Shown here piece after piece: positions 8,625 to 55,885 of a stretch of 64,000 nt of DNA (position 1 is its first letter; each line of letters starts with the position of its first letter). The notes beneath the pieces are model-generated. The model did not search any database, was not told the DNA's origin, and worked only from the letters and a program-made list of their open reading frames with translations. Both the position numbers and the translations under genes were made by a program. Source of the DNA: an uncultured Actinomycetes bacterium (GTDB taxonomy: Bacteria > Actinomycetota > Coriobacteriia > Anaerosomatales > CAVRZR01); NCBI GenBank assembly GCA_963809535.1, contig CAWEJW010000003.1:116031-180030 (forward strand), in the 5' to 3' direction.

Positions 8625-9307
8625 TGTCGAAGGCGACAGACAGCATGCGGGGTACTGAGCCAGACGCGGCAGCCACATCGATCGAATCCCACGCATTCGC
8701 CGACTCTATCGAATCGATCGAATCGCTCGAACCTGGCAGGCGCGGCGAGATTCTGGACGCGGCGCTCGCGGTCTTCGCCGAGAAGGGCTACTCGGGGGGT
8801 TCGATGCGCGACATCGCGACCCGCGTCGGCGTCAGCGAGCCGGCGCTCTATCGATACTTCGCCGGAAAGGAGGCCCTGTTCCTTGCGCTCGTGCGCGTGA
8901 TCGCGACTCATCTGCGCAACGAGGCCATCGACATCTTGAGAGCGGTCCAGCCCGAGTCTCTCCGCGTTCAGGTCGCCGCTGCCCTTGAGAACCGCCGGAA
9001 ACGCATAACCCTCGCCGTCCCGATGTTACGCACGATCCTTCCGGCCGCCGCGCACCACCCGGCTGTGCTAGCCGAGATCCGCACCGTCGTGCTCGAGCCG
9101 ATGCTGGGCGAGCTGGACACGAAGATCGCCGAACTCGATGCAGCCTTCGGCCTGGAACCCGACTCTGCGTCGCGTCGCACCCGCGTGCGCACGTTCATGG
9201 CGCTGTTCGTGGGCTCACTAGCTACCTCGGTGGTATTGGGCGACGAGCCCGACGAGGCCACCGTCGACGCGATCGTGCGCGTCATGGGCTGGGAGGGGCG
9301 GGTCTAG
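8621..9307 (+). CDS. TetR/AcrR family transcriptional regulator
   Basis: ILDAALAVFAEKGYSGGSMRDIATRVGVSEPALYRYFAGKEALF is a canonical TetR N-terminal HTH. Start overlaps the upstream TGA. Confidence 0.85.
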   Translation: MMSKATDSMRGTEPDAAATSIESHAFADSIESIESLEPGRRGEILDAALAVFAEKGYSGGSMRDIATRVGVSEPALYRYFAGKEALFLALVRVIATHLRNEAIDILRAVQPESLRVQVAAALENRRKRITLAVPMLRTILPAAAHHPAVLAEIRTVVLEPMLGELDTKIAELDAAFGLEPDSASRRTRVRTFMALFVGSLATSVVLGDEPDEATVDAIVRVMGWEGRV

Positions 9308-10680
9308 AGCGTGGCGGCCACGCTACGGGCCGCGACGATCCCGCTCGCGCTCGACTGCACGAGCCCGCGTGTGACACCCGCCCCGTCGCCGATAGCCCAC
9401 AACCCGGCGACGGGCGTCTGAAGCTCCGCGTCAACCTCGAGGCGCGAGGAGTAGAACTTCACCTCCACGCCGTAGAGCAGAGTCTCAGGCCCGGCGATAC
9501 CCGGCGCCAAAGCCTCCATCGCGTCGATGAACTCGATGACGTCCGTCAGATGCCGGTACGGCAAGACCGCGGCGAGATCACCCGGCGTCGCATACGGCAT
9601 CGTAGGCCGACCAGCCATATCGGCTATGCGCGTTGGGGTCGAGCGGCGGCCGGCCTTCAGATCGCACAGTCGCTGCATGAGGATGCCATCGCCGAGCAGG
9701 TTCGCCAGGTGCGCGATCTCACGGCCGTACGTGATCGGCTCCCGGAAGGGTTCTGTGAACGCCTGGCTGACGAGCACCGCAAAATTGGTGTACGCGGTCC
9801 TCTCCTCGGCGTACGAGTGACCGTTCACCGTCACGACGTCGCCGTACGACTCCGTCGTCACTTCGCCGTAGGGGTTCATGCAGAACGTCCGCACCGCGTC
9901 CCCGAACGTCGGCGAGCGGTACAGCAGCTTGGCTTCGTAGAGCGCCATCGTGAGCGGTTCCATCACCTCGGCGGGACACTCCACCCGCACGCCGATGTCC
10001 ACGGCGTTGCTCTTGAGAGGGACCTCGAGAACGCCGGCTTGGGCAGCGAGCCATTCGGCACCCTCGCGGCCGGGAGCAGCAATGACCGCATCCGCGGTGA
10101 CGATGCTTCCATCTGCCAGCTCGACGCCGGTCGCGCGACCTCCGCTCGCCAGGATGCGCATCACGTGGCAATCGGTGCGCACGTCGACCCCGACGCTAAC
10201 GAGGTAGTCGTGCATGGCGCCGAGCACCATGGGCGAGTGGTCCGTGCCCAGGTGGCGAATGCGCATCGGGACAAGGGTCATCCCCGCGTCCGCGGCCTTC
10301 TTCTCGAGAAGCTCGGCCTCGGGCGGTTCTGGCCCGTAGACCTTCGTGTCGGCTCCGAATTCGAGCCAGAGCCCGTCCGCGTAATCGATGAGCCGCTCGA
10401 GCTCGTCGCGCCCTACGCAGTCCGCGAGCCATCCGCCGACGTCAGCCGACAGCGTGAGCTTGCCGTCCGAGAAGGCGCCAGCGCCGCCCCAGCCGGTCAT
10501 GATGTCGCACTGTCTGCATCCGACGCAGTGGGTCTCTCGCGCGGGGCAGCTACGACGGTTGAGCGCATGGCCCTTCTCGGCCAAGAGCACCGGTCCGATG
10601 CCCGCGCGGACGAGCTCGATGGCTGCGAAGATGCCGGCCGGGCCGGCCCCGATGATGATGGCGCGGTGATGATCTGGCAC
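9304..10680 (-). CDS. FAD-dependent oxidoreductase (uncharacterised NAD(FAD)-utilising dehydrogenase type)
   Basis: HRAIIIGAGPAGIFAAIEL dinucleotide-binding motif at the N-terminus and a C-terminal GDGAGVTRG motif. I prefer GTG 10680 (GAAGGAG 5 nt upstream) over the ORF-track start 10716. Confidence 0.75.
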   Translation of the reverse strand: MPDHHRAIIIGAGPAGIFAAIELVRAGIGPVLLAEKGHALNRRSCPARETHCVGCRQCDIMTGWGGAGAFSDGKLTLSADVGGWLADCVGRDELERLIDYADGLWLEFGADTKVYGPEPPEAELLEKKAADAGMTLVPMRIRHLGTDHSPMVLGAMHDYLVSVGVDVRTDCHVMRILASGGRATGVELADGSIVTADAVIAAPGREGAEWLAAQAGVLEVPLKSNAVDIGVRVECPAEVMEPLTMALYEAKLLYRSPTFGDAVRTFCMNPYGEVTTESYGDVVTVNGHSYAEERTAYTNFAVLVSQAFTEPFREPITYGREIAHLANLLGDGILMQRLCDLKAGRRSTPTRIADMAGRPTMPYATPGDLAAVLPYRHLTDVIEFIDAMEALAPGIAGPETLLYGVEVKFYSSRLEVDAELQTPVAGLWAIGDGAGVTRGLVQSSASGIVAARSVAATL

Positions 10681-10843
10681 ACGCGCTCCTTCCGAGGGTA
10701 CCAAGCGGACGCGCATAACCGCACAATCCGCGATCGCCTCGCCCCAATCCTACGCGCGACGGGCCGGTTTCGGGTAATCGAAAGCGTATGATTACGTGAG
10801 CGAACATGCACGTGAGCAGGGAGAACTCCCGGGGGAGTGCATC

Positions 10844-11107
10844 GTGGGCGACCCGATCTCCAAGAAGGTGACCATCTACACGTCACCTACATGACCGTGG
10901 TGCTCGGTGGCGAAGAGGTACTTCGCCGAGTGTGGGATTGAATACGAGGAATGCGACATCGTCGCCGACGTGGACGCCCGGCGCCGCATGGCGCTCATGA
11001 CCGGACAATTCGGCGTCCCCGTGGTCGAGATCGGCGAGCACGCGATGATCGGCTGGGACCCCGACGAGTTCGAACGCTTGCGCTCGGGACAGTTTAGGCA
11101 CCGCTGA
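10844..11107 (+). CDS. Glutaredoxin/NrdH-like protein with in-frame TGA (putative selenocysteine) in a U-P-W-C redox motif
   Basis: GTG 10844 (GGGGGAG 6 nt upstream), then GDPISKKVTIYTSPT-TGA(10892-10894)-PWCSVAKRYFAECGIEYEECDI...GVPVVEIG...IGWD. This is a complete glutaredoxin fold. The ORF track sees only 10907..11107. Confidence 0.65.
10903..10930 (+). promoter_or_regulatory. SECIS-like hairpin downstream of the in-frame TGA
   Basis: Upper stem GGCGAAG (10909-10915) / CTTCGCC (10921-10927), loop AGGTA. Lower stem CTC/GAG with a 3-nt bulge. The upper stem starts 14 nt after the TGA. Confidence 0.5.
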
Positions 11108-11133
11108 GCACGTGCCCGAGTCGCTCCGAGCGC

Positions 11134-12516
11134 CTACGGCATCTTGGCCGGCTCGATGAACTTGGTGAACCGCTCGTTGAACACGAGCGGTATCGATCCT
11201 GTCGGCCCGTTGCGATGCTTCGCGATGATGAGCTCCGCCATACCCTTCGCAGGGCGTCCATCCTGGTCCTCGGCGTACAGATCCGTGTTGCGGTCGATGA
11301 ACATGACCACGTCGGCGTCCTGCTCGATCGACCCTGACTCACGCAGGTCCGAGAGCTGCGGCCGCTTGCCGTGGCGCTGCTCCACGGCGCGAGAGAGCTG
11401 CGAGAGCGCGAGCACGGGTGCGTCGAGTTCCTTTGCGAGGATCTTCAGCCCCCGGCTTATCTCCCCGATCTCGACGGTGCGGTTCGCTTCCGATCGTCGC
11501 GCCTGAGGCTGCATGAGCTGCAGATAGTCCACGACGACAAGGCCCTTCGGCTTGCCGCGCAGTTGCCGGCGCGCCTTGGTGCGTACCTCGAAGATGGAGA
11601 TCGCGGGCGTGTCGTCGACCCACAGGTCCAGCTCGGCCAGCCGTCCCATTGCCTGGTGTATAGAGCCCCAGTCCTGCTCCTTAATGTAGCCCGTGCGCAC
11701 GTCCTGCAGGTTGATGCGCGCCTCCGAGCACAGAACGCGCTGCACGAGTTGCTCGGCCGACATCTCGAGGCTGAACAACGCTACTGACGTGCCCTTCTTG
11801 GCCGCGTTGACGGCCATGTTCAGCGCCAATGCGGTCTTTCCGACGCTGGGTCGGGCCGCCAGGATCACGAGGTCGCCTGCGTGAAGGCCAGCGAGCAACT
11901 TGTCAAGGTCCTTGTATCCGGTGGGAACCCCGGTCACGTGCTCTTTGCGCTCGAACAGCTCCTCCAGTTGGTGAAACCCGATCTGGAGCAGCTCTTCCAT
12001 CGGCCGGAAGTTGCTCTCCACGCGCTTGCTCGTGACCTCGAAGATGAGGCGCTCCGAATCCTCGATGACTGCGTCGATGTCATCGGGCGCATCGAATCCC
12101 ATCGTCACGATCTGTGTGGCGGCTCCGATGAGCTGCCGAAGCATGGCGGTACGCTTCACGATCTGGGCGTAGCGCATCGCGTTGGCCGCCGTCGGAACGA
12201 TCTGCGTCACGTCGAGCAGGTACGGCTTGCCACCCGCAGCCTCGAGCTCGCCTGAAGCCTCCAGCCGGTCGGCGACACTCACGTGATCGATCGGTATCCC
12301 GCGCGCATAGAGGTGTTCCATCGCCGCGAAAATGCGCGCGTGCGCGGGACGATAGAAGTCCTGGGCAACGACAATGCTGAGCGCTTGCTCTACCGCTTCC
12401 GAGGACAAGAACATGGAGCCGAGCAGGGCTTGCTCGGCCTCGAGATTATGCGGCGGCACGCGTTCTGCCGAAGAGACCGCGCGAAGACGGGGCTCGCGCA
12501 CTGCGATTTCGCTCAT
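11134..12516 (-). CDS. dnaB: Replicative DNA helicase DnaB
   Basis: PPHNLEAEQALLGSM N-terminal motif; Walker A ARPSVGKTALALN; LVVVDYLQLM; C-terminal RNGPTG. ATG 12516 follows GGAGGG. No intein. Confidence 0.95.
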   Translation of the reverse strand: MSEIAVREPRLRAVSSAERVPPHNLEAEQALLGSMFLSSEAVEQALSIVVAQDFYRPAHARIFAAMEHLYARGIPIDHVSVADRLEASGELEAAGGKPYLLDVTQIVPTAANAMRYAQIVKRTAMLRQLIGAATQIVTMGFDAPDDIDAVIEDSERLIFEVTSKRVESNFRPMEELLQIGFHQLEELFERKEHVTGVPTGYKDLDKLLAGLHAGDLVILAARPSVGKTALALNMAVNAAKKGTSVALFSLEMSAEQLVQRVLCSEARINLQDVRTGYIKEQDWGSIHQAMGRLAELDLWVDDTPAISIFEVRTKARRQLRGKPKGLVVVDYLQLMQPQARRSEANRTVEIGEISRGLKILAKELDAPVLALSQLSRAVEQRHGKRPQLSDLRESGSIEQDADVVMFIDRNTDLYAEDQDGRPAKGMAELIIAKHRNGPTGSIPLVFNERFTKFIEPAKMP

Positions 12517-13455: not shown

Positions 13456-14415
13456 CTAGATGCTGCCCGGCGGTTCCTCGAGACTGATCGGCTTGGCCGA
13501 TGCTTCTCTCGGCAGGCGCCGGAAATTGGCCCAGAAATCGAGCATTCCGACCAGGCTCACGATCAACAGGAACTGGTCGAGGATCCACAGAACGATGTAC
13601 AGCGCGACCATCTTGACATAGCCGCTCTTCGGGACGTCGAAGAGTGCAGAGACGACGGCGACTCCCTGTATGAAGAACAACGTGCGCGCGATGTACAGCG
13701 CGTTGAACCCGACGGCTCGCGCCACCGCCGTGTTCGCGCCCAGAAGGGACGCCGCAGCAACCGCAACGAGCCCGATAACGAACGGCCAGAGCACATGCAC
13801 GCTCAGGTCGAGTTCCTTGGCGGCGGGTACCGCAATTTCGACGCCACTCCGGCGCGCGGCCCATGCGATGGCTGCAATGACGAAGATGGCCACGAAGATC
13901 GCGCTCTGCACATAGAACGACGGCCACAAGCTGACCAGCACAGGCCGCAACGTCGCGAGCTGATCCGATAGGTTCGCAGCGCTCGACCCGAGCGCTTGCC
14001 TCAGGCCCTCGGTCAAGGTCACTGCCTGGGCACGCATCGCCTCCATAAGCGACTGGCCCACCGACCGCGCCGACAAGGCGTCGGCTGCAATCGCGCTTCC
14101 GGCTATCGCCAGCGTCAGCACGAGTCCGACGAACTGGGCAGAATGCGTGCGCAACAGCCACACGGCAAGCAGTACCGCCGCGGACACCGGGATGGCGAAG
14201 GCAGCCGAGTGCGGGAACACAGCCGCCGCAAGCGCGGCGCCCGTGAGCGCAGCGACAATGCTGGCCACCGTTCTCCCCCCATAGGCAAGGCCCGCTGCGG
14301 CTGCGGCTGTGACCGGCAGGCCAACGTAGGGGAACTGCGGCGCGACCACAACGCCGGCCGCACACGCGACGCTCAGCAGCGCGGTGTCGCGCATGCTTAT
14401 GACCCGATCGGACAT
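13456..14415 (-). CDS. Polytopic membrane protein, YybS/DUF2232-like by position and topology
   Basis: Eight or more hydrophobic helices. It sits between rpsR and rplI, as yybS does in Bacillus. The family assignment rests on synteny only. Confidence 0.6.
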   Translation of the reverse strand: MSDRVISMRDTALLSVACAAGVVVAPQFPYVGLPVTAAAAAGLAYGGRTVASIVAALTGAALAAAVFPHSAAFAIPVSAAVLLAVWLLRTHSAQFVGLVLTLAIAGSAIAADALSARSVGQSLMEAMRAQAVTLTEGLRQALGSSAANLSDQLATLRPVLVSLWPSFYVQSAIFVAIFVIAAIAWAARRSGVEIAVPAAKELDLSVHVLWPFVIGLVAVAAASLLGANTAVARAVGFNALYIARTLFFIQGVAVVSALFDVPKSGYVKMVALYIVLWILDQFLLIVSLVGMLDFWANFRRLPREASAKPISLEEPPGSI

Positions 14416-16903: not shown

Positions 16904-16979
16904 TGGAGCGGGCGACGGGTCTCGAACCCGCGACCTAAAGCTTGGGAAGCTTTCGCTCTACCAACTGAGCTACGCCCGC
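16904..16979 (-). tRNA. tRNA-Gly (anticodon CCC), CCA encoded
   Basis: Folded by hand: acceptor GCGGGCG/CGCCCGC, D arm GCTC-AGTTGGTA-GAGC, anticodon loop TTCCCAA, T arm GCGGG-TTCGAGA-CCCGT, discriminator T plus CCA. 76 nt. Confidence 0.93.
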
Positions 16980-17015: not shown

Positions 17016-17621
17016 CTAGGCTCGCGCACGCGTCACGACGCCGCGAATGTGCCCGGCCCTGTGCCGTCTGTCGGCTTGCCAGAGGACGATAGCGAGGAGC
17101 GAGAGCACGATCGCCAGCGCGACCTTCCAACCGCGGACGTAGTCGATGGCGTGGTGGCCTGCAGTGATCAGTCTGAGCTCGGAGGCGTGAATGTCCATGT
17201 CCCCGCCGTGCTGAGCACAGGCTGCGTTGAACGTCCCACGTACTTCGACGATATCCCCCTCGTGCTTGTAGTCGCCGAAGATCGTGACTTCCCGCGCGAG
17301 GCTCGCCGGAATCCACACGGGCATGCCGGTGTTGTAGCCGCCGAGGGCTGCCCCCTCCTCAACATTCTTGACGTAGTAAGCGTCATCGTTGAGATGAAGC
17401 CACGCGTACGCTCCCCGGACCATGGCCTCGCCTATGGCCTCGCCCCTGAACGGTATGACCTGTCCGTCCCAGGTCTTCGGGTGTTCGATGAGATCGCCGC
17501 TCGCCGGCGCGTTCGGGCTGAGAGCTGGCGGCGGCGCGCTCTTCGCAAGCGCACTGGCGGGCGCCACCAGCACTGCCAGCAGCACCAGAAGAACTAGGCA
17601 CGCGTACACGCGGGACTTCAC
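17016..17621 (-). CDS. Exported, C-terminally membrane-anchored hypothetical protein, translationally coupled to trkH
   Basis: GTG 17621 overlaps the trkH TAG (TAGTG), with GAGGGGG upstream. Signal peptide VKSRVYACLVLLVLLAVLVAPASALA and a C-terminal TM. The ORF-track N-terminal extension overlaps trkH and is rejected. Confidence 0.6.
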   Translation of the reverse strand: MKSRVYACLVLLVLLAVLVAPASALAKSAPPPALSPNAPASGDLIEHPKTWDGQVIPFRGEAIGEAMVRGAYAWLHLNDDAYYVKNVEEGAALGGYNTGMPVWIPASLAREVTIFGDYKHEGDIVEVRGTFNAACAQHGGDMDIHASELRLITAGHHAIDYVRGWKVALAIVLSLLAIVLWQADRRHRAGHIRGVVTRARA

Positions 17622-19123
17622 TAGCGCCCCCTCAGCACTGAGTATCCGTATCCGAACAGCGCGAACACGGACATGAACTCGAGGCGCCCGAGCCACTGCT
17701 GAAGGATGTACATCACCTTCATGAGTGCGGGCATCAGAGGTGACGTTACTCCGCACGAGAGACCGGTGTTCGATCCAGCCGACACTGCTTCGAACGCGGC
17801 TTGCACGAAGTCGTATCCGTACAACATCCCGACGATCGCGCCTATCGCGTACATCGTCAGATACGCGATAGTGATCGTCATCGCCGTCCGCACAACTGCG
17901 TCATCGAGCCAGACGTCCCGTACGTGGTGATACTTCGCGCGAACGACAGCGGACTCCGGAGAGATCATCTTTCGAACATCCTGGATGAACGCCTTCGTAA
18001 TGACCCCAACACGAATGCCTTTGATGCCGCCGGCGGTTGAACACGCAGAGGCCCCTATCGCCATCGCGATCGTCGTCGCGATGAGGCCGACGGGACCCCA
18101 TTGCGTCACAAACGCTCTCGAGTAGATCGTTGAGAAGCCGGTCGTCGTGTGACCAGAGGCGAGCTGGTAGAAGGCCTTCCTGAAGAGGGCCATTGCATCC
18201 GAGTACACACCCATCTTCCCGAGCCAGAACGTAGCGACGAGAGTGGTCGCAGTGAGCGTGATGGCGAAGGACACGGTTTCGATGTTGCGCGTGATCTCTC
18301 TTCGGTTGCCGGTCCACACGGCCCAGTGCATCGCAAAGTTGAACGAGCCGGCGATGAAGATGACGACCGCTAGCACTTCGTACAAGAGCGAGTGGTACCA
18401 CATCGTGTTGTATGACTGCGGCGCGAATCCTCCTGTCGACCAAGCGCCCATGAACACCCAGAGGCCGTGGAAGAAGGCGCGTACCGGCCCCTGGCCGAGC
18501 CACCAGCCCGCCGCGAAGAGCGCGAGCGTGCCGACGACCAGCCAGGTCAGCGAAACGAGCCAGATCGCCCTCGCCGTCTGAATGACGTTGGGAAGCAGCC
18601 GCTCGTCCTTGCCTTCGCCGACGTACACCTTGTAAGCGCCAGCCGTGCCTTTGAACAGGAAGGTCAGCGCAATGACGACGATCCCCTGGCCGCCTGCGTA
18701 GGTGAGCAGGTGTCTCCACATGTTGAGCCCGTTGCTCACGTGATCGAGGTCCTGCAGCAGATAGAGGCCCGTCGTCGTGTACCCGCTCATGACGTCGAAC
18801 ATCGCGTCGAGGTAGCTGCCCTCGTGACCCGACAGGAAGTGCGGGAGCGCCCCCAGCGCCGTGGCGACGATCCAAGAACCGGCTGCCACGACCAGCCCGT
18901 GGCTCCACTTCAGGTCCTTGTCCGTCTTGAAGAAGTACTGCACCCCGAAGCCGAAGACCATGCACGCCGCGATGCTGATGACGAAATCGACGACTGTGTC
19001 CCACTCACCGAAAACGATTGACACCATGAGCGGAACGACCATCAACAGACCTACGCCAACGATAACCTTGCCGGTGTAGGTTGCGATAACGTAATGGTCC
19101 TCGCGGCGAGGTCGGACGATCAT
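17621..19123 (-). CDS. trkH: TrkH/KtrB family potassium uptake membrane protein
   Basis: 500 aa, polytopic, with repeated M1-P-M2 units carrying SGYTTTG, GGFAP, SGHTTTGFS and AGSNTGLS selectivity-filter-like motifs. Confidence 0.9.
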   Translation of the reverse strand: MIVRPRREDHYVIATYTGKVIVGVGLLMVVPLMVSIVFGEWDTVVDFVISIAACMVFGFGVQYFFKTDKDLKWSHGLVVAAGSWIVATALGALPHFLSGHEGSYLDAMFDVMSGYTTTGLYLLQDLDHVSNGLNMWRHLLTYAGGQGIVVIALTFLFKGTAGAYKVYVGEGKDERLLPNVIQTARAIWLVSLTWLVVGTLALFAAGWWLGQGPVRAFFHGLWVFMGAWSTGGFAPQSYNTMWYHSLLYEVLAVVIFIAGSFNFAMHWAVWTGNRREITRNIETVSFAITLTATTLVATFWLGKMGVYSDAMALFRKAFYQLASGHTTTGFSTIYSRAFVTQWGPVGLIATTIAMAIGASACSTAGGIKGIRVGVITKAFIQDVRKMISPESAVVRAKYHHVRDVWLDDAVVRTAMTITIAYLTMYAIGAIVGMLYGYDFVQAAFEAVSAGSNTGLSCGVTSPLMPALMKVMYILQQWLGRLEFMSVFALFGYGYSVLRGR

Positions 19124-25305: not shown

Positions 25306-25692
25306 CTACCCGTGGATCAGTTGCGGCAGGCAGCGCGTGCAGACCCATGTGGACGTCCCCCGCGTCCGCACCGGGAGGAGCGGCCGGTCGTCCTCCGACG
25401 ACCCGCAATTGAAGCAGGTCTGCGCGATGTAGGTCTGCGGCTGCTCGGCCGCATGCTCATCGACAGCCTGATGGTCGAACGGAACCGCCTCGCGGGTCTC
25501 CACCGTGAGGGCGCCGGTCGGGCACACGCCGAGGCAGAACCCGGCACCGTCGCACAGTTCCTCCCGAACGACCTTGGCCTTGCCATCGATGATTTGGATC
25601 GCGCCTTCCGCGCATGGGCTCACGCACACCCCGCAACCGGTGCAGAGATCCTCATCGATGCGGACTATCTGCCTGGTGATCGTCTGTGACAT
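25306..25692 (-). CDS. 4Fe-4S dicluster domain protein with a C-terminal Cys4 ribbon
   Basis: CTGCGVCVSPCAEGAI ... CDGAGFCLGVCPTGAL, then CFNCG...VCTRC. ATG 25692 follows AAGGAG. Confidence 0.8.
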   Translation of the reverse strand: MSQTITRQIVRIDEDLCTGCGVCVSPCAEGAIQIIDGKAKVVREELCDGAGFCLGVCPTGALTVETREAVPFDHQAVDEHAAEQPQTYIAQTCFNCGSSEDDRPLLPVRTRGTSTWVCTRCLPQLIHG

Positions 25693-25744
25693 TTCTCGTA
25701 CTCCTTCTTTGGAGCTGACGTGTCGGGCCGCTCTGCGCCCGCGC

Positions 25745-26176
25745 TTATTGGTCCGAGGCGCTGCCCGCCTTCTCGCTGGCGCGCTTGTGACGCCTCGTTT
25801 CGACGACGTGCTTGATCCCATCGATCGCATGTCCGTGCAGCATCGAGCGCGGACCCGAGTAGCGCATCATCTGCCGCTGCCATTCCCGCTCTTCGCTCCG
25901 GTAGCAATGGACGTCGCAGTTCGCACAGAACGGCTTCGGGTCCTTCGGGCAGAACGCGCGACGCTTCTCGCCGTACGCGAGATGGGCCTCGCACTCGGCG
26001 CAGAGCACGGGCGTCTTCTTCCCGTAGACGCCGAGGCGAGCCGCGTCGGTCACGGCAGGAATGCGCGCCACCTCGCGATGCTGACCCGCACAGTAGATCT
26101 CGATGAGATCCGCAAGCGTGCGGGTGTCCTTGGCGACCTTGTGGTCTTGCATGCGTTCTTGGAACGTCTTGCTCAT
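25745..26176 (-). CDS. YgbA-like protein (nitrous oxide-stimulated promoter family)
   Basis: IEIYCAGQH...LCAECEAHLAYGEKRRAFCP...KPFCANCDVHCYRSEEREWQRQMMRYSGPRSML resembles the YgbA family pattern as I remember it. Start is uncertain (26176, 26194 or 26206). Confidence 0.7.
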   Translation of the reverse strand: MSKTFQERMQDHKVAKDTRTLADLIEIYCAGQHREVARIPAVTDAARLGVYGKKTPVLCAECEAHLAYGEKRRAFCPKDPKPFCANCDVHCYRSEEREWQRQMMRYSGPRSMLHGHAIDGIKHVVETRRHKRASEKAGSASDQ

Positions 26177-27070: not shown

Positions 27071-27835
27071 CTAGGTCGCGCCGCCCTCGCTCTCGCTCCC
27101 CGCGTCGGCACGCCTCTTCGCAACGGAGGCCTTCGCACCCTTCTCCAGCGTGCCCGCCATCAGGAAGCCGGCGAGCAGGATCGCCGAGGCCACCATCTCC
27201 GCCACGTACAATCCGGCCGTGCTTCCGGCCCGGGCCATGCTCCCCGCTCCAGCGATGATGAGCGTGCCGATGATGATGAGCACGTTGGCCCACACGCGGT
27301 AGCGGTACTCCTTCTTCGGCCAGAACTTAATGATCGACCACGCACTGCCGCCGAGCAGGAACAGTGAGCCGATGATGTTGAATGGCAGCGACATCACGCG
27401 CGGGAACGAACCACCCGCGCCGAGCGCCTGACCGCCGACCACGATGCCCGGCACCAGTTTGTCCATGACCAGCTCGACGTTGAAGGTGCCCCACAGAAAG
27501 ATGGTCAGGCCGATCACGTTGAATGCCAGGTAGATGTCACCCCAGATGCGCTTCTTGAAGATCAGGTAGCAGGTACCGTTTCCGAGGAAGCCAACGAGTG
27601 TAGCGGCCAGGACGATGTAGATGCGGTACACCGTCGGATCCCAGTGGCCGACGTACTCCGACCAAGCCTCCATCACCGCCGCCACCGCATAGAACAGGAA
27701 ACCGATCGTCCACATCAGTTGATGCATCTTGCGCCGCTGGAGCCACTGCCGGAAAAGGAGCGCCGTGTACACGAATCCCAACGCCGCCGTCAGAGCGGGC
27801 CACCACCATCCAGACCAGAACTCAGCGCTGCTCAT
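27071..27835 (-). CDS. Polytopic membrane protein, unknown function
   Basis: 254 aa, about 7-8 hydrophobic helices, Trp-rich N-terminus. No family recognised. Confidence 0.7.
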   Translation of the reverse strand: MSSAEFWSGWWWPALTAALGFVYTALLFRQWLQRRKMHQLMWTIGFLFYAVAAVMEAWSEYVGHWDPTVYRIYIVLAATLVGFLGNGTCYLIFKKRIWGDIYLAFNVIGLTIFLWGTFNVELVMDKLVPGIVVGGQALGAGGSFPRVMSLPFNIIGSLFLLGGSAWSIIKFWPKKEYRYRVWANVLIIIGTLIIAGAGSMARAGSTAGLYVAEMVASAILLAGFLMAGTLEKGAKASVAKRRADAGSESEGGAT

Positions 27836-27901: not shown

Positions 27902-28870
27902 TCAGAACGTGTTCAGCCGTGCGTCGGCCTCGGTCGCTTCCTTCCGCGCGGCGTCGTAGAGCTTTGTGGCAGAGCCTGCGAGGATCTCGTAGGCGTCGGC
28001 CACGGCCGTGCCCGGTGTGGCGGGAAGTGCCCCCGCCAGCTTCAGCACCTGCTTCTCCTGCGCGTTGTACCGGCGTATGACCGTGTTCGCTGCGGGGATC
28101 TTCCCTGCGAGCCACGCGCTGTTGGACTGCCGTGAGATAGCGAGCAGGGCGACCTTCGCGTCGATGAGCTTCACGTAGCGCTCGAACCCGGCCTCCGGAA
28201 AGGCGGTCGCTGCTTGGCTGAAGTACGGTCGGGCTGCCCCGAATCGCCGCGCCGCCTGGAGCGCCAGCTGGGTCGAGCGCGTGACGCCTGGGCGCGTGAG
28301 CCTGTTGTACTCGACGACCGACTGGTCGGCGAGTTTCTCCGCAGCGAGTAGGATGGCCCATCCGTCCTGGCTCGGCTGAAGTGCCTGCCCCGCCTTGACG
28401 TTCGCTTCCAGGATCACGCTTGCGGGATCGAGCATTTTGAGGCGCGCTGCCACCGATGCCTGCAGGAAGCGGGCGTGTCGCTGCTCGTCTTCCGTCACCT
28501 TGTCCATCGCGTCGGCGATGAGCCTCTGGCACTCCTCCAGATCGCGGCGTGCCGATGGCAGCTTCGCCTGGAGAGCTGTCGCCTGCGTCGCTAGTTCAGA
28601 GGTCGCCTCGGACCTCACGACTTCGTCGACGTCCAACACGACGGCGTCGGCGCGCTCAAGAAGGCTCGCCGCCTTGTCGAGATCGCGGGCGCCCTCGAAG
28701 CGCCTGGAGATCGCCCCCGAACCGATGACGGCGGCTACGCCGAGTACGACGAGAACGACGAGGCTCGTGAGGATGATGGCTCGGCGACTCAAGCGCCGGT
28801 ACGCCTGCTCCATGTGCGAGGAGGCCTCTTGTTCGGTCGCGCCGGTGGTGGCCTGAGGCTCGTCCGTCAC
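27902..28870 (-). CDS. N-terminally membrane-anchored all-helical hypothetical protein
   Basis: TM helix AIILTSLVVLVVLGVAAVIG followed by a long helical ectodomain. I prefer GTG 28870 (GGAGA 4 nt upstream); alternative ATG 28813. Confidence 0.6.
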   Translation of the reverse strand: MTDEPQATTGATEQEASSHMEQAYRRLSRRAIILTSLVVLVVLGVAAVIGSGAISRRFEGARDLDKAASLLERADAVVLDVDEVVRSEATSELATQATALQAKLPSARRDLEECQRLIADAMDKVTEDEQRHARFLQASVAARLKMLDPASVILEANVKAGQALQPSQDGWAILLAAEKLADQSVVEYNRLTRPGVTRSTQLALQAARRFGAARPYFSQAATAFPEAGFERYVKLIDAKVALLAISRQSNSAWLAGKIPAANTVIRRYNAQEKQVLKLAGALPATPGTAVADAYEILAGSATKLYDAARKEATEADARLNTF

Positions 28871-29116
28871 GCAGTCTCCATGTCGTTGGGCATGGCAATC
28901 TGTGAAAGCATAGCCGAGCGGGCGCCGAGCGTCAGTCGAGTCAAGCCCGACACCGCCCGCGCCGTTGATCCGGCGCTCTGACCTGTCCGAGAAGGCCTGC
29001 GTGACGTGACGGTAACAGGCGGTCCGCTGGCACATCGGTTGCTTGCCAAATCTGCGAGCTGGGCGACCCGCCTTCTCCTCCCCCCCTCAGGGGCGGAATC
29101 CGCCCGCTCGACGCAA

Positions 29117-29150
29117 AACGAGGCGCGCCCCCCACGCGCCTCGTTTCATT
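29117..29150 (+). terminator. Orphan intrinsic-terminator-like hairpin with a C6 loop
   Basis: Perfect 11-bp stem AACGAGGCGCG/CGCGCCTCGTT, loop CCCCCCA, then TCATT. Preceded by hairpin GGGCGG-AAT-CCGCCC (29091-29105) and a C7 run (29080-29086). Confidence 0.4.
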
Positions 29151-29204
29151 CCCGGACTTCTCGCTCGGGTACACTGGCGTCGTTTCCACTCGGGAAGGAC
29201 GTGT

Positions 29205-30173
29205 GTGAGCAGGGCGCTCGAGCGACTCGTCAATCTCGCGATGTACCTCGCATCCGCGCGGGTCCCGGTCACTGCCGAAGACGTGCGCGCGAACGTGGAC
29301 GGGTATGGCAAGCACCAGGACCAGTCGGCATTCCTCCGCATGTTCGAGCGTGACAAGGAAGATCTGCGTGTGGCCGGTTTCGTCATCGAATCGGACTCCG
29401 AGGGCTCCTACCGTCTCGATACCTCGGCGACGTTCGCGCGCGAGGTATCCCTCACTCCCGACGAAGCCGCCACGGTCCGAGTGGTCGCCTCGGCGTTCCT
29501 CGACGATAAGTCCTTCCCCTTCGCCGACGATCTGCGCCTGGCGCTGGCCAAGGTCGCGTCCGACGTGGTCGACGAACAGACCCCGGTCTTCGCCCGCCTG
29601 GCCGAGGAACAACCCGAGCAACAGGGCGCATCGGTGGCGCTGCTCGACCGGGCCATGTCCGCGCGCAAGCGCGTGGAGCTCGACTACGTCAACATGGCGG
29701 GTGAGCGCAAGCACCACCGGCTCGAGCCCTGCGGGCTATTCATACGCGACGGCAGATGGTACGCGGTGGGCAGGGACGTCGATCTCGACGAGGTGCGCAT
29801 CTACACCGTCTCCCGCATGAGTTCTCTGCGAATGAACCCGGCTCGACCGAAGACGGCGGATTTCGACCGACCGACCGACTTTGACGTCCAATCCTTCATC
29901 GCGCTGCCGTTCCAGTACGGTCCCGAGACCTTCGAGGCGCGCATCGAGTTCGCCCCCTCACAGACCTGGCGGACTCCGGGCCTCACGGCGGGCGTCGGCA
30001 ACATCGCGATAGAGGGCGACGGATCGGCTACGTGGACCGTCTCCGCTCGGGACCCGGAAAGGCTCATGCGCTGGGTCGTGGAGAACGGTCCCGGTATCAA
30101 CTTGAGGGAGCCTCGCGCGTTGGCCGATGATCTGCGCGAGCGCCTGACCAGGGTGGCAGCGATCCATGGGTAG
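29205..30173 (+). CDS. pafB: PafB-like WYL-domain transcriptional regulator
   Basis: wHTH N-terminus; central WYL region RLEPCGLFIRDGRWYAVGRD; C-terminal extension. GTG 29205 follows GAAGGA. Paired with a paralogue. Confidence 0.75.
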   Translation: MSRALERLVNLAMYLASARVPVTAEDVRANVDGYGKHQDQSAFLRMFERDKEDLRVAGFVIESDSEGSYRLDTSATFAREVSLTPDEAATVRVVASAFLDDKSFPFADDLRLALAKVASDVVDEQTPVFARLAEEQPEQQGASVALLDRAMSARKRVELDYVNMAGERKHHRLEPCGLFIRDGRWYAVGRDVDLDEVRIYTVSRMSSLRMNPARPKTADFDRPTDFDVQSFIALPFQYGPETFEARIEFAPSQTWRTPGLTAGVGNIAIEGDGSATWTVSARDPERLMRWVVENGPGINLREPRALADDLRERLTRVAAIHG

Positions 30174-31101
30174 GGACACGGCTGCCGACCGCGCGACGCG
30201 CTTGCTGGCGATCCTGCATCTGCTTCGGCCGGGAAGCCGCCTGTCTCTGGACGCGATCGCCGACCAGCTCGGCATCACCCGAGCAGAAGCAGCCGAAGAT
30301 CTCGAGGCCCTGTCGTGTTGCGGACTCGCACCGTACAGCCCCGATGCGCTCGTGCCTGTGCTCATCGATGGCGAGGTCGCGTACGTGTGGGGCGACCTGC
30401 CGGCCCTCGACAAGGCGATCCGCCTTTCCGAGGGTCAGGTACGAGCGGTCCTTGCCGCCCTGCAGGCGGCCGGACTGCCTGCCGAGGACCCGCTGTGCGC
30501 GAAGCTCGTCGCCGCGTCCGGCGACGCGGACGCAGCGGGGCGCATAAGACGCGTGCTCACCAGCGCCAGAGACGACGCGTCCGGAGAGGCGCTGAAAGCA
30601 GCGGCGCTCGCGACCGAGCAGGGGTTCGCAATGCGCCTGATCTACCAGGGCATCGCCGAGCAGCAGTCGCGCGAGCGCATCGTGGAGCCGGTCTCACTCG
30701 TGAACGAACGCGGGCACTGGTACCTGGAAGCGTACGCGCGCGACTCGGGAGCGCTCAGGACGTTCCGCCTCGATCGCGTCCGCGCTGCCGAAGTACTCGG
30801 CGAGCGGACTCCGCATCGAGCACTCTCTCCGTCGGGAACCGCGCTCCTCACCGAGGGGCTTCCGCTCGCCCTGGTGCGGCTCGCCCCGGGCGAGGAAATG
30901 AACTCACGCGATTGGCCGGGGGCGGAGGTTGTTTCTGTCGACGACACCGGGACCGTTTTCACCATTCCTTACGCCGGAACGGCCTGGATCGCCAGGCAGA
31001 TCGTCGCGAGACTCGGGGCCGCCGAGATGCTCGAGCCAGCAGAAGTGGCCGACGCGGTGCGGGTTCTCGCCTTGGCTGCCGCCGAGGATTCGGCGCTCTA
31101 G
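30166..31101 (+). CDS. pafC: PafC-like WYL-domain transcriptional regulator
   Basis: ATRLLAILHLLRPGSRLSLDAIADQLGIT HTH; WYL region VEPVSLVNERGHWYLEAYARD. Overlaps the upstream gene by 8 nt. Confidence 0.75.
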   Translation: MGRDTAADRATRLLAILHLLRPGSRLSLDAIADQLGITRAEAAEDLEALSCCGLAPYSPDALVPVLIDGEVAYVWGDLPALDKAIRLSEGQVRAVLAALQAAGLPAEDPLCAKLVAASGDADAAGRIRRVLTSARDDASGEALKAAALATEQGFAMRLIYQGIAEQQSRERIVEPVSLVNERGHWYLEAYARDSGALRTFRLDRVRAAEVLGERTPHRALSPSGTALLTEGLPLALVRLAPGEEMNSRDWPGAEVVSVDDTGTVFTIPYAGTAWIARQIVARLGAAEMLEPAEVADAVRVLALAAAEDSAL

Positions 31102-31125: not shown

Positions 31126-34014
31126 CTAGCCGCAGAAGCGGCGCCCGACGGTCGCAGCCATGTCCTCTGTCGTCAGGACCTCGATGTCGTTCACCGGAAG
31201 CGCCGAGAGGAACTCGCGGCCGTAGCGCTTAGGACCGAGCACTCGCGTGTCGGCGATGACGAGTCCGCCGGTGTCGGTACTGCTCCGGATGAGCCGGCCC
31301 GCTGCCTGTTTGAGCTCGAGGATGGCCTCCGGGAGGTAGTAGTGCTCCCACGCGCGCGGGTCGCGCTCGCGGCGTTCCTCGTAGAGAGGGTCTTTCACCT
31401 GACCGAACGGGAGTCGGGGCACGACTACACACCTCAGCGTGTCTCCCTTGGCGTCGAAGCCCTCCCAGAACGACTTGGTCGCGAACAGCGAGAGCTTCTC
31501 GTCGGCGATGAACTCGTCGCGGAGACGTTTCGCCGAGGTGCCCCGGCTCTGCATGAGCAGGTTGATCCCCTGCGCCTCGAGTCGCGGTGCGAGCACGTCG
31601 AAAAGCGTTTCCATGTCGCGCCGGTTGGTGAAGAGCGTGAGAACCGAGCCGCCCATGGCGAGGTGAAGGCTCTCGAGGAGTGCCTCGAGGTTGCCCAAGT
31701 ACTCCCTGGTCCCAGGCGGTGACACGTCACTCGGCACGAACACCGACATCTGTGTATCGAAGTCGTAGGACGAAGCGAGTCTCAAGCTGCGCCAGGAGTC
31801 TTCGGGCAGGCGGTCGAGACCGACTCCGTGGGCGAAGAAGCCGAAGTCCTCTCCGGCGGCCAGGGTCGCCGACGTGAAGATCGCCGAGTGAGTGCGGCCG
31901 TAGAACTCCTCCGCGAGGAGCTCTCCAACGTCGAGTCTCGCGGCCTTCAACTGCTCGGCATCGACCGTCCTTCGGCGGTCGAGCCTCACGGAGTAGACGA
32001 ATTCGTCGGCCTCGCCGTCCAAGACCATGACCAGCCCTTCATACTGCTCGGCGAGGCGCGAGAGGACTCCGACAAGGTCGGCGCGCACTTCGAGCAGCGG
32101 TTCGTCATCGGCTTCGATCGCTGTCACGAGCTCGCGGCCGTCGGCGAGCAGCTCCTCGAGACGCTTGGCTAAGCTCTTGCCCACGCCGGCGGCGATACTC
32201 CAGGGGCCGCTGTCCCGCACGGGAGGCGTTAACCTCAGGTCGCACGCGTCGTACTCGGTGGCGGGCACGAGTGCGCCGAGGTCCTTGACGAAATCGAAGA
32301 ACGAGTCGGCGAGTGTGGCAGCTCGGGTAGCCACCTCCTCGATGCGGGAAATGAGCGCGAGCGCCGGGGTGGCGTCAGGCCTCGCCGCAACGTGGCGACG
32401 CAGGACCTCGAGAACGCCGCCGCGCATGCCGCTCAGCGCGGCAAGCACGGAGGTGAGCTCTGCGTGGCTGGTTCCGAGCGTGAGCTGCTTGCGTGCCTCG
32501 GCTTCCGCGGCGTGTGCCTCGTCGAGCACCCAGTGGCGGATCGGTGGAAGGATGCCACCGGCCGCCACGACGTCACGGAAGAGCAGCGCGTGGTTGGTGA
32601 CGATGACGTGCGCGCTCGCAGCCCTGCGCCTGACTCCGTGCAGGTAGCACAGGTACGGGTAGTAGCGGCATCGCTTCCTCGTACAGTCGGCCTGCGTCGC
32701 CTGCACAGAGGAGCGGAGCTCGCGCCGCCAGTGCACGTTGATCGCGTCCAGATCCCCCCACGATGACTGCGCGACCCACGAGTGGAGCGCCGCAACAGTC
32801 GCAAGAGTATCCCCGTCCGCCCCCTCGAGCTCGCCCGCCAGCCGGTCGAGCTTCCGCAGGCAAACGTAGTGTTCGTAGCCCTTGAGCGAGACATACTCGA
32901 GCTCGCCCAAGTCGGCCTCGGCCAGTGCGGCCGCGAGCTTCGGGAGCTCGTGATACACGAGTTGGTCCGTAAGGGAGTTGGTCTTTGTCGCAACGCCGAC
33001 CGGCACCCGGTTCGAGAGTGCAAAGAGCGCTGCCGGAACGAGATAGGCGATCGACTTGCCGACGCCCGTCCCGGCTTCGACCGCCAGGTGCGTCCTGGTC
33101 GAGAAGGCTTCGAGCACGGCTTCGGCCATCCGGGTCTGCTCGTCGCGGCTCTCGAAGCCCTCGTACATGCGGCCGACTAGACCATCCGAGCCGAAATGGG
33201 AGCACACCTCTTCGGCGGCGGGGCAGACACACGCCACGTCGTCAGCGTCGTCGAAGGCCTCGCCGCGCTGCGCTCGTACGTGGTGGCGGAGGTCTTTCAG
33301 ATCGAACGGGCGTGCCGACTTGCCCGCCGCGTGGTGAGCGATGATGCGTCGCAGCGGCCATGCGGTATCCGAGCCCAGTGATGCCAGGCGCGTCACGAGG
33401 GCAGGTGGAAGTGCGTCGAGCGCGCACAGCAGCACTCTCCACACGAAGGCGAGTGCCTCAACGTCGTCGGCGGCGCGATGCGTTGGCGACGACGTGCCGA
33501 ATGCCTCCGCAAGGTCGCGGAGCCGGTGAGTTCGAAGCCGGGGCAGACCGATCCTGGCGAGCTGAAGGCTGTCGATCCACGCGCCGGGGAACGCGGTCGT
33601 TCCCGCAACTCGGGTGATGAACGCGCGGTCAAAGGCGACATGGTGTGCGACGACGTCGCGTCCTGCGACGAACTCAGCCAGCTGACCGACGGCGGCTTCC
33701 ACACTCGGCGCACCTTTAAGATCGACGTCGGCGATGCCGGTGAGCCGCGTCGTCTCGAGCGGCACCGCTCGCTGAGACGCGACCATGGTGTGGAAGCGCG
33801 CGAGGATGTCGGGCCCGTGCATGAGGGCCGCGGCGATCTCTATTATCTCGTCGCGGTCGGGGTCGAAGCCTGTCGTTTCGATGTCGACGATGACGATCTC
33901 GTCTTCGAATCCGAAGACTGCGTCATGCGCCTGTCCGGCCAGAGAAGCGTAGGATTCGGCGACCGCGGGGTCCGTGCCCGGAACTATGAATCGATTCAGC
34001 GCGTCCTCAGTCAT
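31126..34014 (-). CDS. dinG: DinG-family helicase with an N-terminal DEDD 3'-5' exonuclease domain
   Basis: IVIVDIETTGFDPDRDEIIEIAA (Exo I); Walker A EAGTGVGKS; DEAH box VLDEAHAAE; Fe-S Cys set YVCLRK...DCTRKRCRYYPYLCY; C-terminal helicase motifs. Confidence 0.88.
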   Translation of the reverse strand: MTEDALNRFIVPGTDPAVAESYASLAGQAHDAVFGFEDEIVIVDIETTGFDPDRDEIIEIAAALMHGPDILARFHTMVASQRAVPLETTRLTGIADVDLKGAPSVEAAVGQLAEFVAGRDVVAHHVAFDRAFITRVAGTTAFPGAWIDSLQLARIGLPRLRTHRLRDLAEAFGTSSPTHRAADDVEALAFVWRVLLCALDALPPALVTRLASLGSDTAWPLRRIIAHHAAGKSARPFDLKDLRHHVRAQRGEAFDDADDVACVCPAAEEVCSHFGSDGLVGRMYEGFESRDEQTRMAEAVLEAFSTRTHLAVEAGTGVGKSIAYLVPAALFALSNRVPVGVATKTNSLTDQLVYHELPKLAAALAEADLGELEYVSLKGYEHYVCLRKLDRLAGELEGADGDTLATVAALHSWVAQSSWGDLDAINVHWRRELRSSVQATQADCTRKRCRYYPYLCYLHGVRRRAASAHVIVTNHALLFRDVVAAGGILPPIRHWVLDEAHAAEAEARKQLTLGTSHAELTSVLAALSGMRGGVLEVLRRHVAARPDATPALALISRIEEVATRAATLADSFFDFVKDLGALVPATEYDACDLRLTPPVRDSGPWSIAAGVGKSLAKRLEELLADGRELVTAIEADDEPLLEVRADLVGVLSRLAEQYEGLVMVLDGEADEFVYSVRLDRRRTVDAEQLKAARLDVGELLAEEFYGRTHSAIFTSATLAAGEDFGFFAHGVGLDRLPEDSWRSLRLASSYDFDTQMSVFVPSDVSPPGTREYLGNLEALLESLHLAMGGSVLTLFTNRRDMETLFDVLAPRLEAQGINLLMQSRGTSAKRLRDEFIADEKLSLFATKSFWEGFDAKGDTLRCVVVPRLPFGQVKDPLYEERRERDPRAWEHYYLPEAILELKQAAGRLIRSSTDTGGLVIADTRVLGPKRYGREFLSALPVNDIEVLTTEDMAATVGRRFCG

Positions 34015-34169: not shown

Positions 34170-34736
34170 CTACTTCATGCCTGTGACTTTCTTCCCAGCC
34201 ACGAGCCAGGTGTCGCCCTGCTTCTTGAACACCCACGTGTTCTCGAAGGTGCCGTACTGGGTAGTCTGCTGGTCCACGATGACCGTCGCCTCGTCCCCCT
34301 GCGCCGTGGACGAAGTGATCTTGTATCCGGTGATGCCGTAGCTCGCGACCTGTTGCTTCAGCGCATCGGGAGACGACCCCGTCTGCTTGGCGGCGGGCAA
34401 GTGATTGAATGCCGTCGTCCAGTCGCCCTTGTCCGCAGCCGCGTAGTACTCGTCGACCCACTTCTCGGGCGTCGTGCCAGAGGAGACCTTCGTCGCTGCT
34501 TTTGCATCGAAGTCGGCAGGAACGATCGCTGTGGCGGCGCCGGGCGCGGCGGGAGTGCTCGTGGCGGTGGCGCCTGCATTGGCCCCTGTGTTCGAGCCGA
34601 CGGAGACATCGCTCACTTGCGGAACAGTGTTGTTGTTCTTCCAGATCATGTAGCCGAGTCCGACTCCGAGCACCAAGACCACAGCGATGAGCGCGATGAC
34701 GACGTTGTTCATCGCAGGGCGAGCGTCTTCTGACAT
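34170..34736 (-). CDS. Membrane-anchored hypothetical protein
   Basis: MSEDARPAMNNVVIALIAVVLVLGVGLGYMIW TM, Ala/Thr-rich linker, small beta-rich domain. ATG 34736 follows GAAAGGA. Confidence 0.6.
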   Translation of the reverse strand: MSEDARPAMNNVVIALIAVVLVLGVGLGYMIWKNNNTVPQVSDVSVGSNTGANAGATATSTPAAPGAATAIVPADFDAKAATKVSSGTTPEKWVDEYYAAADKGDWTTAFNHLPAAKQTGSSPDALKQQVASYGITGYKITSSTAQGDEATVIVDQQTTQYGTFENTWVFKKQGDTWLVAGKKVTGMK

Positions 34737-34944
34737 CAGATCGATCCTTTCGGGGCCCAGTATTGTCGGACGCCCGCACCGAGCGCGGGCAACGGTCACC
34801 TTCGTGCGCTGGAAGATGACGCGCTCAAAGAGGGAGCGAAAGGTACGCCAATCCCGCTGCGTTCACAGGAAAGGCACGCTCGTCATCGCAGCCGAGCAGA
34901 CGTGACCTGTCCGGCTGCCGCGGCGGTCGTCGCACCTCGGCGAG

Positions 34945-36966: not shown

Positions 36967-36988
36967 GCCCGTGACTCCCTGCCCCCGC

Positions 36989-37318
36989 CTATGCGTGCGC
37001 GGCGGCCTCGCCGGCAGCTGGCTGCCCGGCTGCCCGGACGCGGATCCGCTTGGCCAAGCCGCGACCGACGGCGATCTCCTGGCGGCCGCTCTTGAGCACG
37101 AGCGGGCCGCCCGGAATGCGCGTGACGCAGGTGACGCAGGCGCCTTCGGCCATGCCGAAGCGCAGGCACTGGACCCGTGCGCGCTCATCGTCGACTCGAA
37201 CGATCTCGAGCTCGTCCCCGCGCCTCGCCTTGTCCAGCGAGCAGTACGCGCACGACGCACACTCGGCGGATACCGCGTCGTTCGGCCTCTCGACGTTCGT
37301 GTTGTCGCGTGTGCCCAC
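36989..37318 (-). CDS. feoA: FeoA domain protein
   Basis: GDELEIVRVDDERARVQCLRFGMAEGACVTCVTRIPGGPLVLKSGRQEIAVGRGLAKRIRV (SH3-like FeoA). GTG 37318 follows AAGGAG. Confidence 0.8.
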   Translation of the reverse strand: MGTRDNTNVERPNDAVSAECASCAYCSLDKARRGDELEIVRVDDERARVQCLRFGMAEGACVTCVTRIPGGPLVLKSGRQEIAVGRGLAKRIRVRAAGQPAAGEAAAHA

Positions 37319-53102: not shown

Positions 53103-53399
53103 TCAGGCTGGGTGTACTTCGGTATATCGCTGAACGCCTTCACGCAGCTCGCGGACCTTGCGCCACGCGACTTCCTCATCCCGACCGAGGTAGTGCTCCA
53201 CGCGACCACCGAGCAGTCCCGCCGCCTGTTCGGCACGCTCGGCGAAACCCCTCGCAACGTCGGCCGCGCGCTGCGCTTCGTCGGCTATCCGACGCCGAGT
53301 GCGCCCACCTGGCGCTGGCGCGAACAGGAGACCGATGACCATGCCCACTACCAAGCCTGTGAAGAGCCCGATCGCTAGCATGTTGGCATTCTTCCTCAC
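53103..53399 (-). CDS. YtxH domain protein
   Basis: MLAIGLFTGLVVGMVIGLLFAPAPG TM followed by charged helices. Probable start ATG 53381. Confidence 0.7.
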   Translation of the reverse strand: MRKNANMLAIGLFTGLVVGMVIGLLFAPAPGGRTRRRIADEAQRAADVARGFAERAEQAAGLLGGRVEHYLGRDEEVAWRKVRELREGVQRYTEVHPA

Positions 53400-55863: not shown

Positions 55864-55885
55864 TCCGGCGGCGATTCTAGCTGAA

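Follow-up and report, generated by a model that had tools for sequence, protein, structure and literature searches.

The locus analysed here raises the question of whether a TGA triplet inside a small redox gene is translated as selenocysteine (Sec, U). In the window, by which we mean the whole 64,000-nucleotide stretch of DNA under analysis, the plus-strand interval 10844–11107 encodes a complete glutaredoxin-fold protein only when the in-frame TGA at 10892–10894 is decoded, which gives the motif U-P-W-C. A preliminary description made from the sequence alone had proposed a hidden selenoprotein gene at this position, followed by a hairpin resembling a bacterial selenocysteine insertion sequence (SECIS). 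The comparative data (18 orthologues with TGA, 11 orthologues with Cys and a constrained hairpin) support that interpretation. We conclude that the interval is very probably one gene, named grx below, for an 87-residue thioredoxin-fold redoxin of the glutaredoxin family, in the size class of YruB and NrdH, whose attacking active-site residue is Sec. As far as sequence comparison reaches, this conclusion is carried by coding continuity across the TGA, conservation of the TGA itself, a selective constraint on the hairpin at the RNA level and homology to a verified Sec-containing glutaredoxin, while the actual insertion of Sec and the binding of SelB are what we infer by analogy with characterised systems.

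A glutaredoxin frame that continues through TGA

The features of the locus are listed below.
10831–10837, plus strand: Shine-Dalgarno-like GGGGGAG, read from the sequence, 6 nucleotides (nt) ahead of the GTG start
10844–11107, plus strand: coding sequence of the predicted 87-residue glutaredoxin-like selenoprotein, with GTG start, Sec codon 17 and TGA stop at 11105–11107, from translation and family matches
10892–10894, plus strand: in-frame TGA, putative Sec codon at the first position of U-P-W-C, from the alignment of orthologues
10901–10903, plus strand: TGC, resolving Cys of UxxC, Cys in every Sec and Cys form
10907–11107, plus strand: 66-residue open reading frame (ORF) of gene callers, an annotation artefact without strand beta-1 and the redox motif
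10909–10927, plus strand: putative SECIS element, 7-bp stem 10909–10915/10921–10927 and loop AGGUA 10916–10920, from folding and conservation

The reading frame runs from VGDPISKKVTIYTSPT through the TGA (10892–10894) and P-W-C (TGC at 10901–10903) into SVAKRYF and finishes with SGQFRHR directly before the stop TGA at 11105–11107; no Sec codon lies at that end of the protein. The GTG start at 10844, the ribosome-binding site (RBS) GGGGGAG 6 nt upstream of it and the internal TGA agree in position and sequence with the preliminary description. With U written as C, the frame matches the glutaredoxin family PF00462 above its gathering threshold of 22.9 bits across the whole domain, strand beta-1 and CxxC included (58.5 bits; residues 9–65 aligned with profile positions 1–57 of 60). 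The 66-residue ORF alone reaches 31.1 bits and aligns from profile position 14; it is thus the 16 codons upstream that contribute strand beta-1 together with the redox motif. The earlier statement that the upstream frame restores the full N-terminal start of a glutaredoxin was thus correct, the alignment beginning at profile position 1.

Among solved structures, the best match is Grx1 of Clostridium oremlandii (cGrx1; 7C10), with E = 4e-14 against the PDB and 35% identity over 82 of the 87 residues. A pairwise comparison with the same protein gave E = 4e-21 with the active sites aligned. In its native form, cGrx1 is a selenoprotein whose catalytic Sec belongs to a U(or C)PXC motif; for crystallisation, Cys took the place of Sec (PMC7642778). 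The product of grx is therefore homologous to a verified Sec-containing glutaredoxin in which Sec leads the U-P-x-C motif.

The TGA is conserved within one coding frame

A search of a 5.8-billion-protein collection returned 27 homologues, only three of which are full length and carry CHWC or CPWC. Another 21 had been called as proteins of 66–67 residues that begin exactly at V/M-AKRYF, and three as proteins of 48 residues. Gene callers had been expected to truncate the gene, and this is what happened in 24 of the 27 cases (fragments of 48–67 residues) as well as in the window, where the ORF list, as had been noted, shows at this locus only the 66-residue ORF at 10907–11107.

The comparison at the nucleotide level covered two long ENA contigs (L001 and L002), 12 loci from GTDB species genomes labelled as uncultured Coriobacteriia, Coriobacteriaceae or Actinomycetota metagenome-assembled genomes (MAGs; L003–L014), 12 JGI metagenome loci (L015–L026) and six more short contigs (L027–L032). 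Every locus with enough flanking sequence has the same gene order, namely a divergent oxidoreductase dependent on flavin adenine dinucleotide (FAD), grx, a convergent dnaB and then rplI, and the sequences are therefore orthologues. A TGA occupies the active-site codon in 18 sequences, the window included, which come from at least 15 independent assemblies (GTDB MAGs, JGI, ENA and Logan) and show the motifs U-[P/H/A]-[W/Y]-C. The DnaB proteins encoded beside these Sec forms range from 98% down to 64% identity to that of the window. Alignment with Cys-containing homologues, which had been suggested as a check, places TGC or TGT at this codon in 11 distinct orthologues and matches it with the first Cys of CxxC in PF00462 and in 7C10. 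The codon of the resolving residue is invariant as Cys (TGC in 15 and TGT in two of the Sec forms). A GTG or ATG start lies 11–16 codons 5' of the TGA in every Sec-form orthologue, and in the relatives L001 and L002 a GAGGAG stands 7 nt before the conserved GTG start. The stop codon of grx is TGA in the window and TAG in both of these relatives.

The coding signal on the two sides of the TGA was compared by counting pairwise differences at the three codon positions among 17 non-redundant Sec forms. The values are 0.15/0.18/0.45 for codons −8 to −1 and 0.20/0.18/0.40 for codons +12 to +59. This third-position-biased pattern is alike on both sides, which argues for one coding frame under purifying selection; the decay upstream of the TGA that would have spoken against a selenoprotein is not seen in the relatives. 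An in-frame UGA aligned with the Cys of homologues and flanked on both sides by coding conservation in one frame is what a selenoprotein gene is expected to show.

These data also bear on whether the locus is a pseudogene, or whether its true product is the 66-residue ORF from GTG 10907 with the upstream similarity as a decaying remnant. Such a view could draw on the gene callers, which give only an ORF of 66–67 or 48 residues, and on the score of the 66-residue part, which passes the Pfam threshold by itself. The comparative data contradict it and we regard it as very improbable, since the TGA is fixed in the 18 sequences across 64–98% DnaB identity, the upstream codons have the third-position bias given above, and start codons and RBS are conserved. 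The supposed internal start GTG is replaced by CAG in L012 and by TAC in L013, and the short ORF is therefore no conserved unit; its product would moreover be without strand beta-1 and the entire redox motif.

The genetic code of the window is standard. The 43 well-supported annotated genes end in TGA (14), TAG (27) or TAA (2), and the TGA of grx is the sole internal TGA among them. These counts refute a genome-wide reassignment of TGA (genetic code 4 or 25), and the presence of the same TGA in at least 15 independent assemblies excludes a sequencing or assembly error. Both were considered since the source is probably a metagenome assembly; nothing specific favours either, and we hold them to be extremely improbable.

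A hairpin behind the TGA is constrained in Sec forms

The segments GGCGAAG (10909–10915) and CTTCGCC (10921–10927) enclose AGGTA (10916–10920) and form a perfect 7-bp hairpin with a minimum free energy (MFE) of −9.9 kcal/mol, which starts 14 nt after the TGA. The model of the bacterial SECIS (bSECIS) has a loop of 3–9 nt, a stem of 4–16 bp, 16–37 nt from UGA to loop and an MFE of at most −7.5 kcal/mol, with a G at loop position 1 or 2 and, as a rule, G or U after it (PMC13188914). On all four counts the hairpin lies within these limits, its loop being 5 nt long with G at position 2 followed by another G, and its loop beginning 21 nt after the UGA. Taken alone, the hairpin stands out only mildly: the 45-nt fold at the site has z = −1.5, and a perfect hairpin of at least 7 bp with compatible geometry follows 27 of the 1666 TGA triplets of the window (1.6%). 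The case therefore rests on the comparison with relatives.

Across 17 distinct Sec forms, the codons GCG AAG AGG TAC TTC are invariant nucleotide by nucleotide, except for AGG to GGG in L019, a substitution at the first base of the loop that also changes the encoded residue but leaves the loop GGU intact. When codon pairs for the same amino acid are compared, synonymous differences among Sec forms amount to 1.5% at the hairpin codons versus 47% upstream and 34% downstream, whereas the hairpin codons of Cys forms differ at 56%. The encoded peptide A-K-R-Y-F is fixed in Sec forms, in contrast to AK[A/R]Y[L/M/F] in Cys forms. Every one of the 17 distinct Sec forms has the stem paired at all seven positions. 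L013 shows C-G in place of G-C as its outermost pair, a compensatory change, and in five sequences a GCC-to-GTC substitution (Ala to Val) turns the second pair into G-U. The frozen synonymous sites and the contrast to the Cys forms are the main evidence for the hairpin as far as sequence comparison goes.

A hairpin of at least 6 bp occurs in all 17 distinct Sec forms versus one of 11 Cys forms (Fisher p = 8e-7, uncorrected for phylogeny), a value that overstates independence because the sequences are related. At the hairpin site, 10 of the 11 Cys forms show no more than a single consecutive pair. A hairpin not conserved alongside the TGA had been named as a ground for rejecting the proposal; the two occur together, and selection on the hairpin appears to act only where UGA is present, with L011 as the exception. 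That locus (L011:6031–6075, MAG CAZWGV010000008.1) encodes T-C-P-W-C and has GCG AAG CGG TAC TTC GCC with a 6-bp stem and the loop CGGUA, an apparent fossil SECIS from a recent Sec-to-Cys replacement. It resembles the fossil SECIS elements that a published study reports where Sec was recently converted to Cys (PMC1794560, Figure 4 legend).

The earlier account of the hairpin stands in its 14-nt spacing, its 7 bp, its GGU-containing loop and its bacterial SECIS geometry. It had also extended the stem by a lower CUC/GAG helix, and this part does not hold beyond the window. There, CTC (10903–10905) is complementary to GAG (10928–10930); among the 17 distinct orthologues, pairing at these positions amounts to 55% and only three sequences have the U-A pair, and the extension was rejected as part of the element.

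Sec decoding and the alternative of read-through

Several observations weigh against decoding of the TGA as Sec. Covariation in the hairpin is thin because the stem hardly varies, with one double change and 24 of 500 shuffles reaching the observed score. The Cys form L011 keeps a 6-bp hairpin, and the coupling of hairpin and TGA is to that extent imperfect. No selA, selB, selD or tRNA-Sec gene was found within the 64-kb window: Pfam and NCBIfam scans of 53 of its ORFs gave no SelA, SelB or SelD, and ARAGORN and Rfam (gathering thresholds) detected only tRNA-Gly at 16904–16979 and no tRNA-Sec. ARAGORN found no tRNA-Sec in 19 related loci either, and Rfam at the same thresholds assigned no RNA family to the grx locus. 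The window gave no further selenoprotein candidate in scans of low sensitivity, which missed grx itself because of their thresholds for G+C content at second codon positions and for the sliding segment. The two scans for in-frame TGA flagged only antisense frames and the dnaN/recF junction. At this junction (62804–62821) recoding was considered and rejected: the dnaN stop TGA (62804–62806) and the recF start four codons later share a frame, and each gene matches its own family completely.

That no Sec machinery was seen in the 64-kb window would also fit a UGA that is read through without Sec, for example as Trp, Cys or Arg by near-cognate decoding, where the conserved hairpin promotes read-through or a pause independently of SelB. 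We consider this improbable for reasons that lie in the active site as well as in the RNA. The TGA is always aligned with the catalytic Cys of homologues, and the closest structurally solved relative natively has Sec at the same position (PMC7642778). The hairpin agrees with the bSECIS model in every respect (PMC13188914). A non-catalytic residue at the nucleophile position would yield an inactive redoxin, which is incompatible with purifying selection on both sides of the TGA. The pattern of conservation instead points to a Sec-decoding capacity of the organism. The trait is recorded in some Actinobacteria (PMC1794560, PMC5322559), and a literature search on Sec use in Coriobacteriia gave nothing specific to this clade.

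Proposed mechanism

If the TGA encodes Sec, the following sequence of events may be envisaged. During translation, the UGA at 10892–10894 would be read by Sec-tRNA(Sec), delivered by SelB docking on the mRNA hairpin at 10909–10927, whose loop AGGUA with its G-G-U is typical of a bacterial SECIS. The putative SECIS lies within the codons for A-K-R-Y-F-A of helix alpha-1 and would thereby fix that peptide in Sec forms. In the folded protein, Sec17 at the N-terminus of helix alpha-1 may attack a substrate disulfide or a sulfenate/selenenate, as a selenol/thiol oxidoreductase. Cys20 would then resolve the intermediate as a selenenylsulfide, to be recycled by an upstream reductant.

Evolution of the Sec and Cys forms

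In a crude neighbour-joining tree of DnaB (midpoint root), the Sec forms appear in two places, a tight clade that contains the window and three deep lineages (L009, L012 and L013). The Cys forms lie between both Sec groups, and L011 is on a branch of its own. Both Sec groups have an identical SECIS core, and the arrangement is most simply read as descent from a Sec-containing ancestor. Judged from these sequences, the Sec form was probably ancestral in the Coriobacteriia-like clade, and several later Sec-to-Cys replacements were followed by decay of the hairpin.

The divergent FAD-dependent oxidoreductase

Upstream of grx lies one divergent gene.
9304–10716, minus strand: FAD-dependent oxidoreductase of unassigned function, divergent from grx, with a PF21688 C-terminal domain (Pfam)

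Its product is related to the uncharacterised VP0956 (PDB 3NLC, E = 1.2e-20), and no NCBIfam model scores above its cut-off. At least 120 homologues were found, all at least 68% identical among the matches listed. A Cys-rich stretch, C-x6-C-x2-C-x2-C, is located near residue 55.

Of the 25 loci where grx could be called unambiguously, 22 have the oxidoreductase gene next to it, in Sec and Cys forms alike, and all of these loci come from a single clade whose synteny is conserved. The exceptions are L018, whose contig is too short, and L006 with its duplicate L021, where 3–6 kb of upstream sequence gave no match. The two proteins might constitute a dedicated two-component redox module, with the flavoenzyme as private reductase or substrate of the seleno-redoxin, but we think this unlikely. 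Adjacency may instead simply reflect clade-wide synteny, and a functional partnership is speculation. Were the module real, it would offer the first functional entry point to the COG2509/PF21688 family and would supply the reductant of a glutaredoxin-like protein in a lineage that is not known to produce glutathione.

The intergenic region between the two divergent genes is 127 bp long. Within it, the octamer ACGTGAGC occurs twice, 16 nt apart (10794–10801 and 10810–10817); it is not obviously common to the corresponding regions of L001 and L002. The repeated octamer might be a regulator site. A scan of 10600–11300 for promoter and terminator consensus sequences gave no match.

Genomic setting of the window

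The window covers the origin-proximal region of the chromosome, with the genes concerned at 53396–63895. The genes parB, parA, rsmG, jag and yidC are located on the minus strand at 53.4–57.5 kb, followed by dnaA (60079–61476), dnaN (61709–62806) and recF (62819–63895), and the cumulative GC skew has its minimum near 56–60 kb. Next to grx, the rpsF-ssb-rpsR-rplI-dnaB cluster has a gene for a DUF2232 membrane protein (13456–14415, minus strand) inserted between rpsR and rplI. This insertion is conserved in L001 and L002, and the protein has no NCBIfam match.

Genes for a 4Fe-4S ferredoxin (25306–25830), FeoB (35107–37260) and a rubrerythrin with a rubredoxin-like domain (45061–45576) suggest an anaerobic lifestyle, consistent with a selenoprotein-using Coriobacteriia-like organism.

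Two adjoining regulators with WYL/WCX domains are encoded at 29043–30173 and 30166–31101, the second with a PafC-type helix-turn-helix. Beside them, 31126–34014 (minus strand) encodes a 962-residue RNase T-like exonuclease fused to a DinG-type helicase. A further minus-strand cluster at 46656–53057 comprises a PD-(D/E)XK nuclease (46656–47819), a UvrD/AddA-like helicase (47608–50190) and an AddB-like protein (50142–53057), whose start codons need revising because the listed ORFs overlap. Five ORFs (17016–17756, 27071–27835, 27902–29035, 34170–34799 and 42245–42982) encode proteins of 209–377 residues with no Pfam match at E <= 1e-4. Four of these have a coding-like G+C content at third codon positions, the exception being 17016–17756.

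Significance

The whole orthologue group is mis-annotated in uncultured Coriobacteriia-like Actinomycetota, in entries of 48–67 residues from which the active site is cut. The 17-nt SECIS core GCGAAGAGGTACTTCGC could serve to probe other selenoprotein genes and the SelB specificity of the clade. The strictly syntenic pairs of Sec and Cys orthologues, including the Cys form with the apparent fossil hairpin, provide a natural series for Sec-to-Cys replacement and also show how a SECIS inside an ORF constrains the protein sequence. The value of the locus lies in annotation and in this evolutionary series; knowledge of selenoproteins as such is unchanged, UxxC glutaredoxins being already established.

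Comparison with known systems

Sec-containing glutaredoxins with UxxC were predicted in 2004–2006 and have since been verified biochemically (PMC13188914, PMC7642778, PMC1794560, PMC1088965). Grx (PF00462, UxxC) is counted among the experimentally supported prokaryotic selenoproteins (PMC13188914), with genes in Geobacter sulfurreducens, Alkaliphilus metalliredigenes and Moorella thermoacetica (PMC1794560) and ten sequences from the Sargasso Sea (PMC1088965). Against this background, the gene joins an already known selenoprotein family as a new member from a distinct taxon; it is no new kind of system.

The putative SECIS resembles the consensus bacterial element (bSECISearch model; E. coli fdhF/fdnG type) as an in-ORF stem-loop just 3' of the UGA with a small G(G/U) loop. 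It differs in having no conserved lower stem or bulge and in its unusually frozen primary sequence, the 17-nt core being essentially invariant at only about 65% DnaB identity.

The nearest characterised protein is Grx1 of C. oremlandii OhILAs, Clostridium (Alkaliphilus) (PDB 7C10/7C12/7C13). Both proteins belong to PF00462 and are of similar length (84 residues in cGrx1, 87 here), and in the U-P-H-C of cGrx1, Sec likewise opens a U-P-x-C motif that immediately follows strand beta-1 (PMC7642778). In contrast to the clostridial protein, the one described here comes from an uncultured Coriobacteriia-like actinobacterium and carries UPWC, with UHWC, UPYC or UAWC in its orthologues. Its C-terminal signature is (I/V)GWD(P/K)xEF, whereas cGrx1 has VGFDRDK. 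cGrx1 has been proposed as the reductant of the selenoprotein MsrA (PMC7642778). No msrA was found among the scanned ORFs of the window, and the genomic partner here is the uncharacterised FAD-dependent oxidoreductase instead.

Three further groups of small redoxins were considered, and none could be assigned formally. The best NCBIfam model is that of the YruB family (TIGR02196), which scores 78.1 bits with 72 of its 74 profile positions aligned and falls short of the curated cut-off of 88.55; like the protein described here, YruB-family proteins are small CxxC redoxins without an assigned reductant, the first Cys being replaced here by the predicted Sec. NrdH redoxins (PDB 1R7H, 4HS1, 4F2I and 1H75; E = 1e-8 to 3e-4) have a similar length and fold with CxxC in the same place. 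The NrdH model TIGR02194 scores 45.9 bits versus its cut-off of 85.75, and unlike nrdH, grx has no nrd genes (nrdI, nrdE or nrdF) adjoining it, its neighbours being the FAD-dependent oxidoreductase and dnaB. The UXX-star families (NF041212, NF041114, NF041211 and NF047338) share the glutaredoxin-like fold and the use of Sec. Their matches are weak (27–53 bits) and all below the cut-offs: the best reaches 53.4 bits where 66 would be required, and the remaining models score lower. As their names indicate, UXX-star proteins have Sec in a U-x-x-stop motif. The protein described here, by contrast, ends in QFRHR with no C-terminal Sec codon, and its putative Sec stands in the N-terminal redox motif, as in cGrx1.

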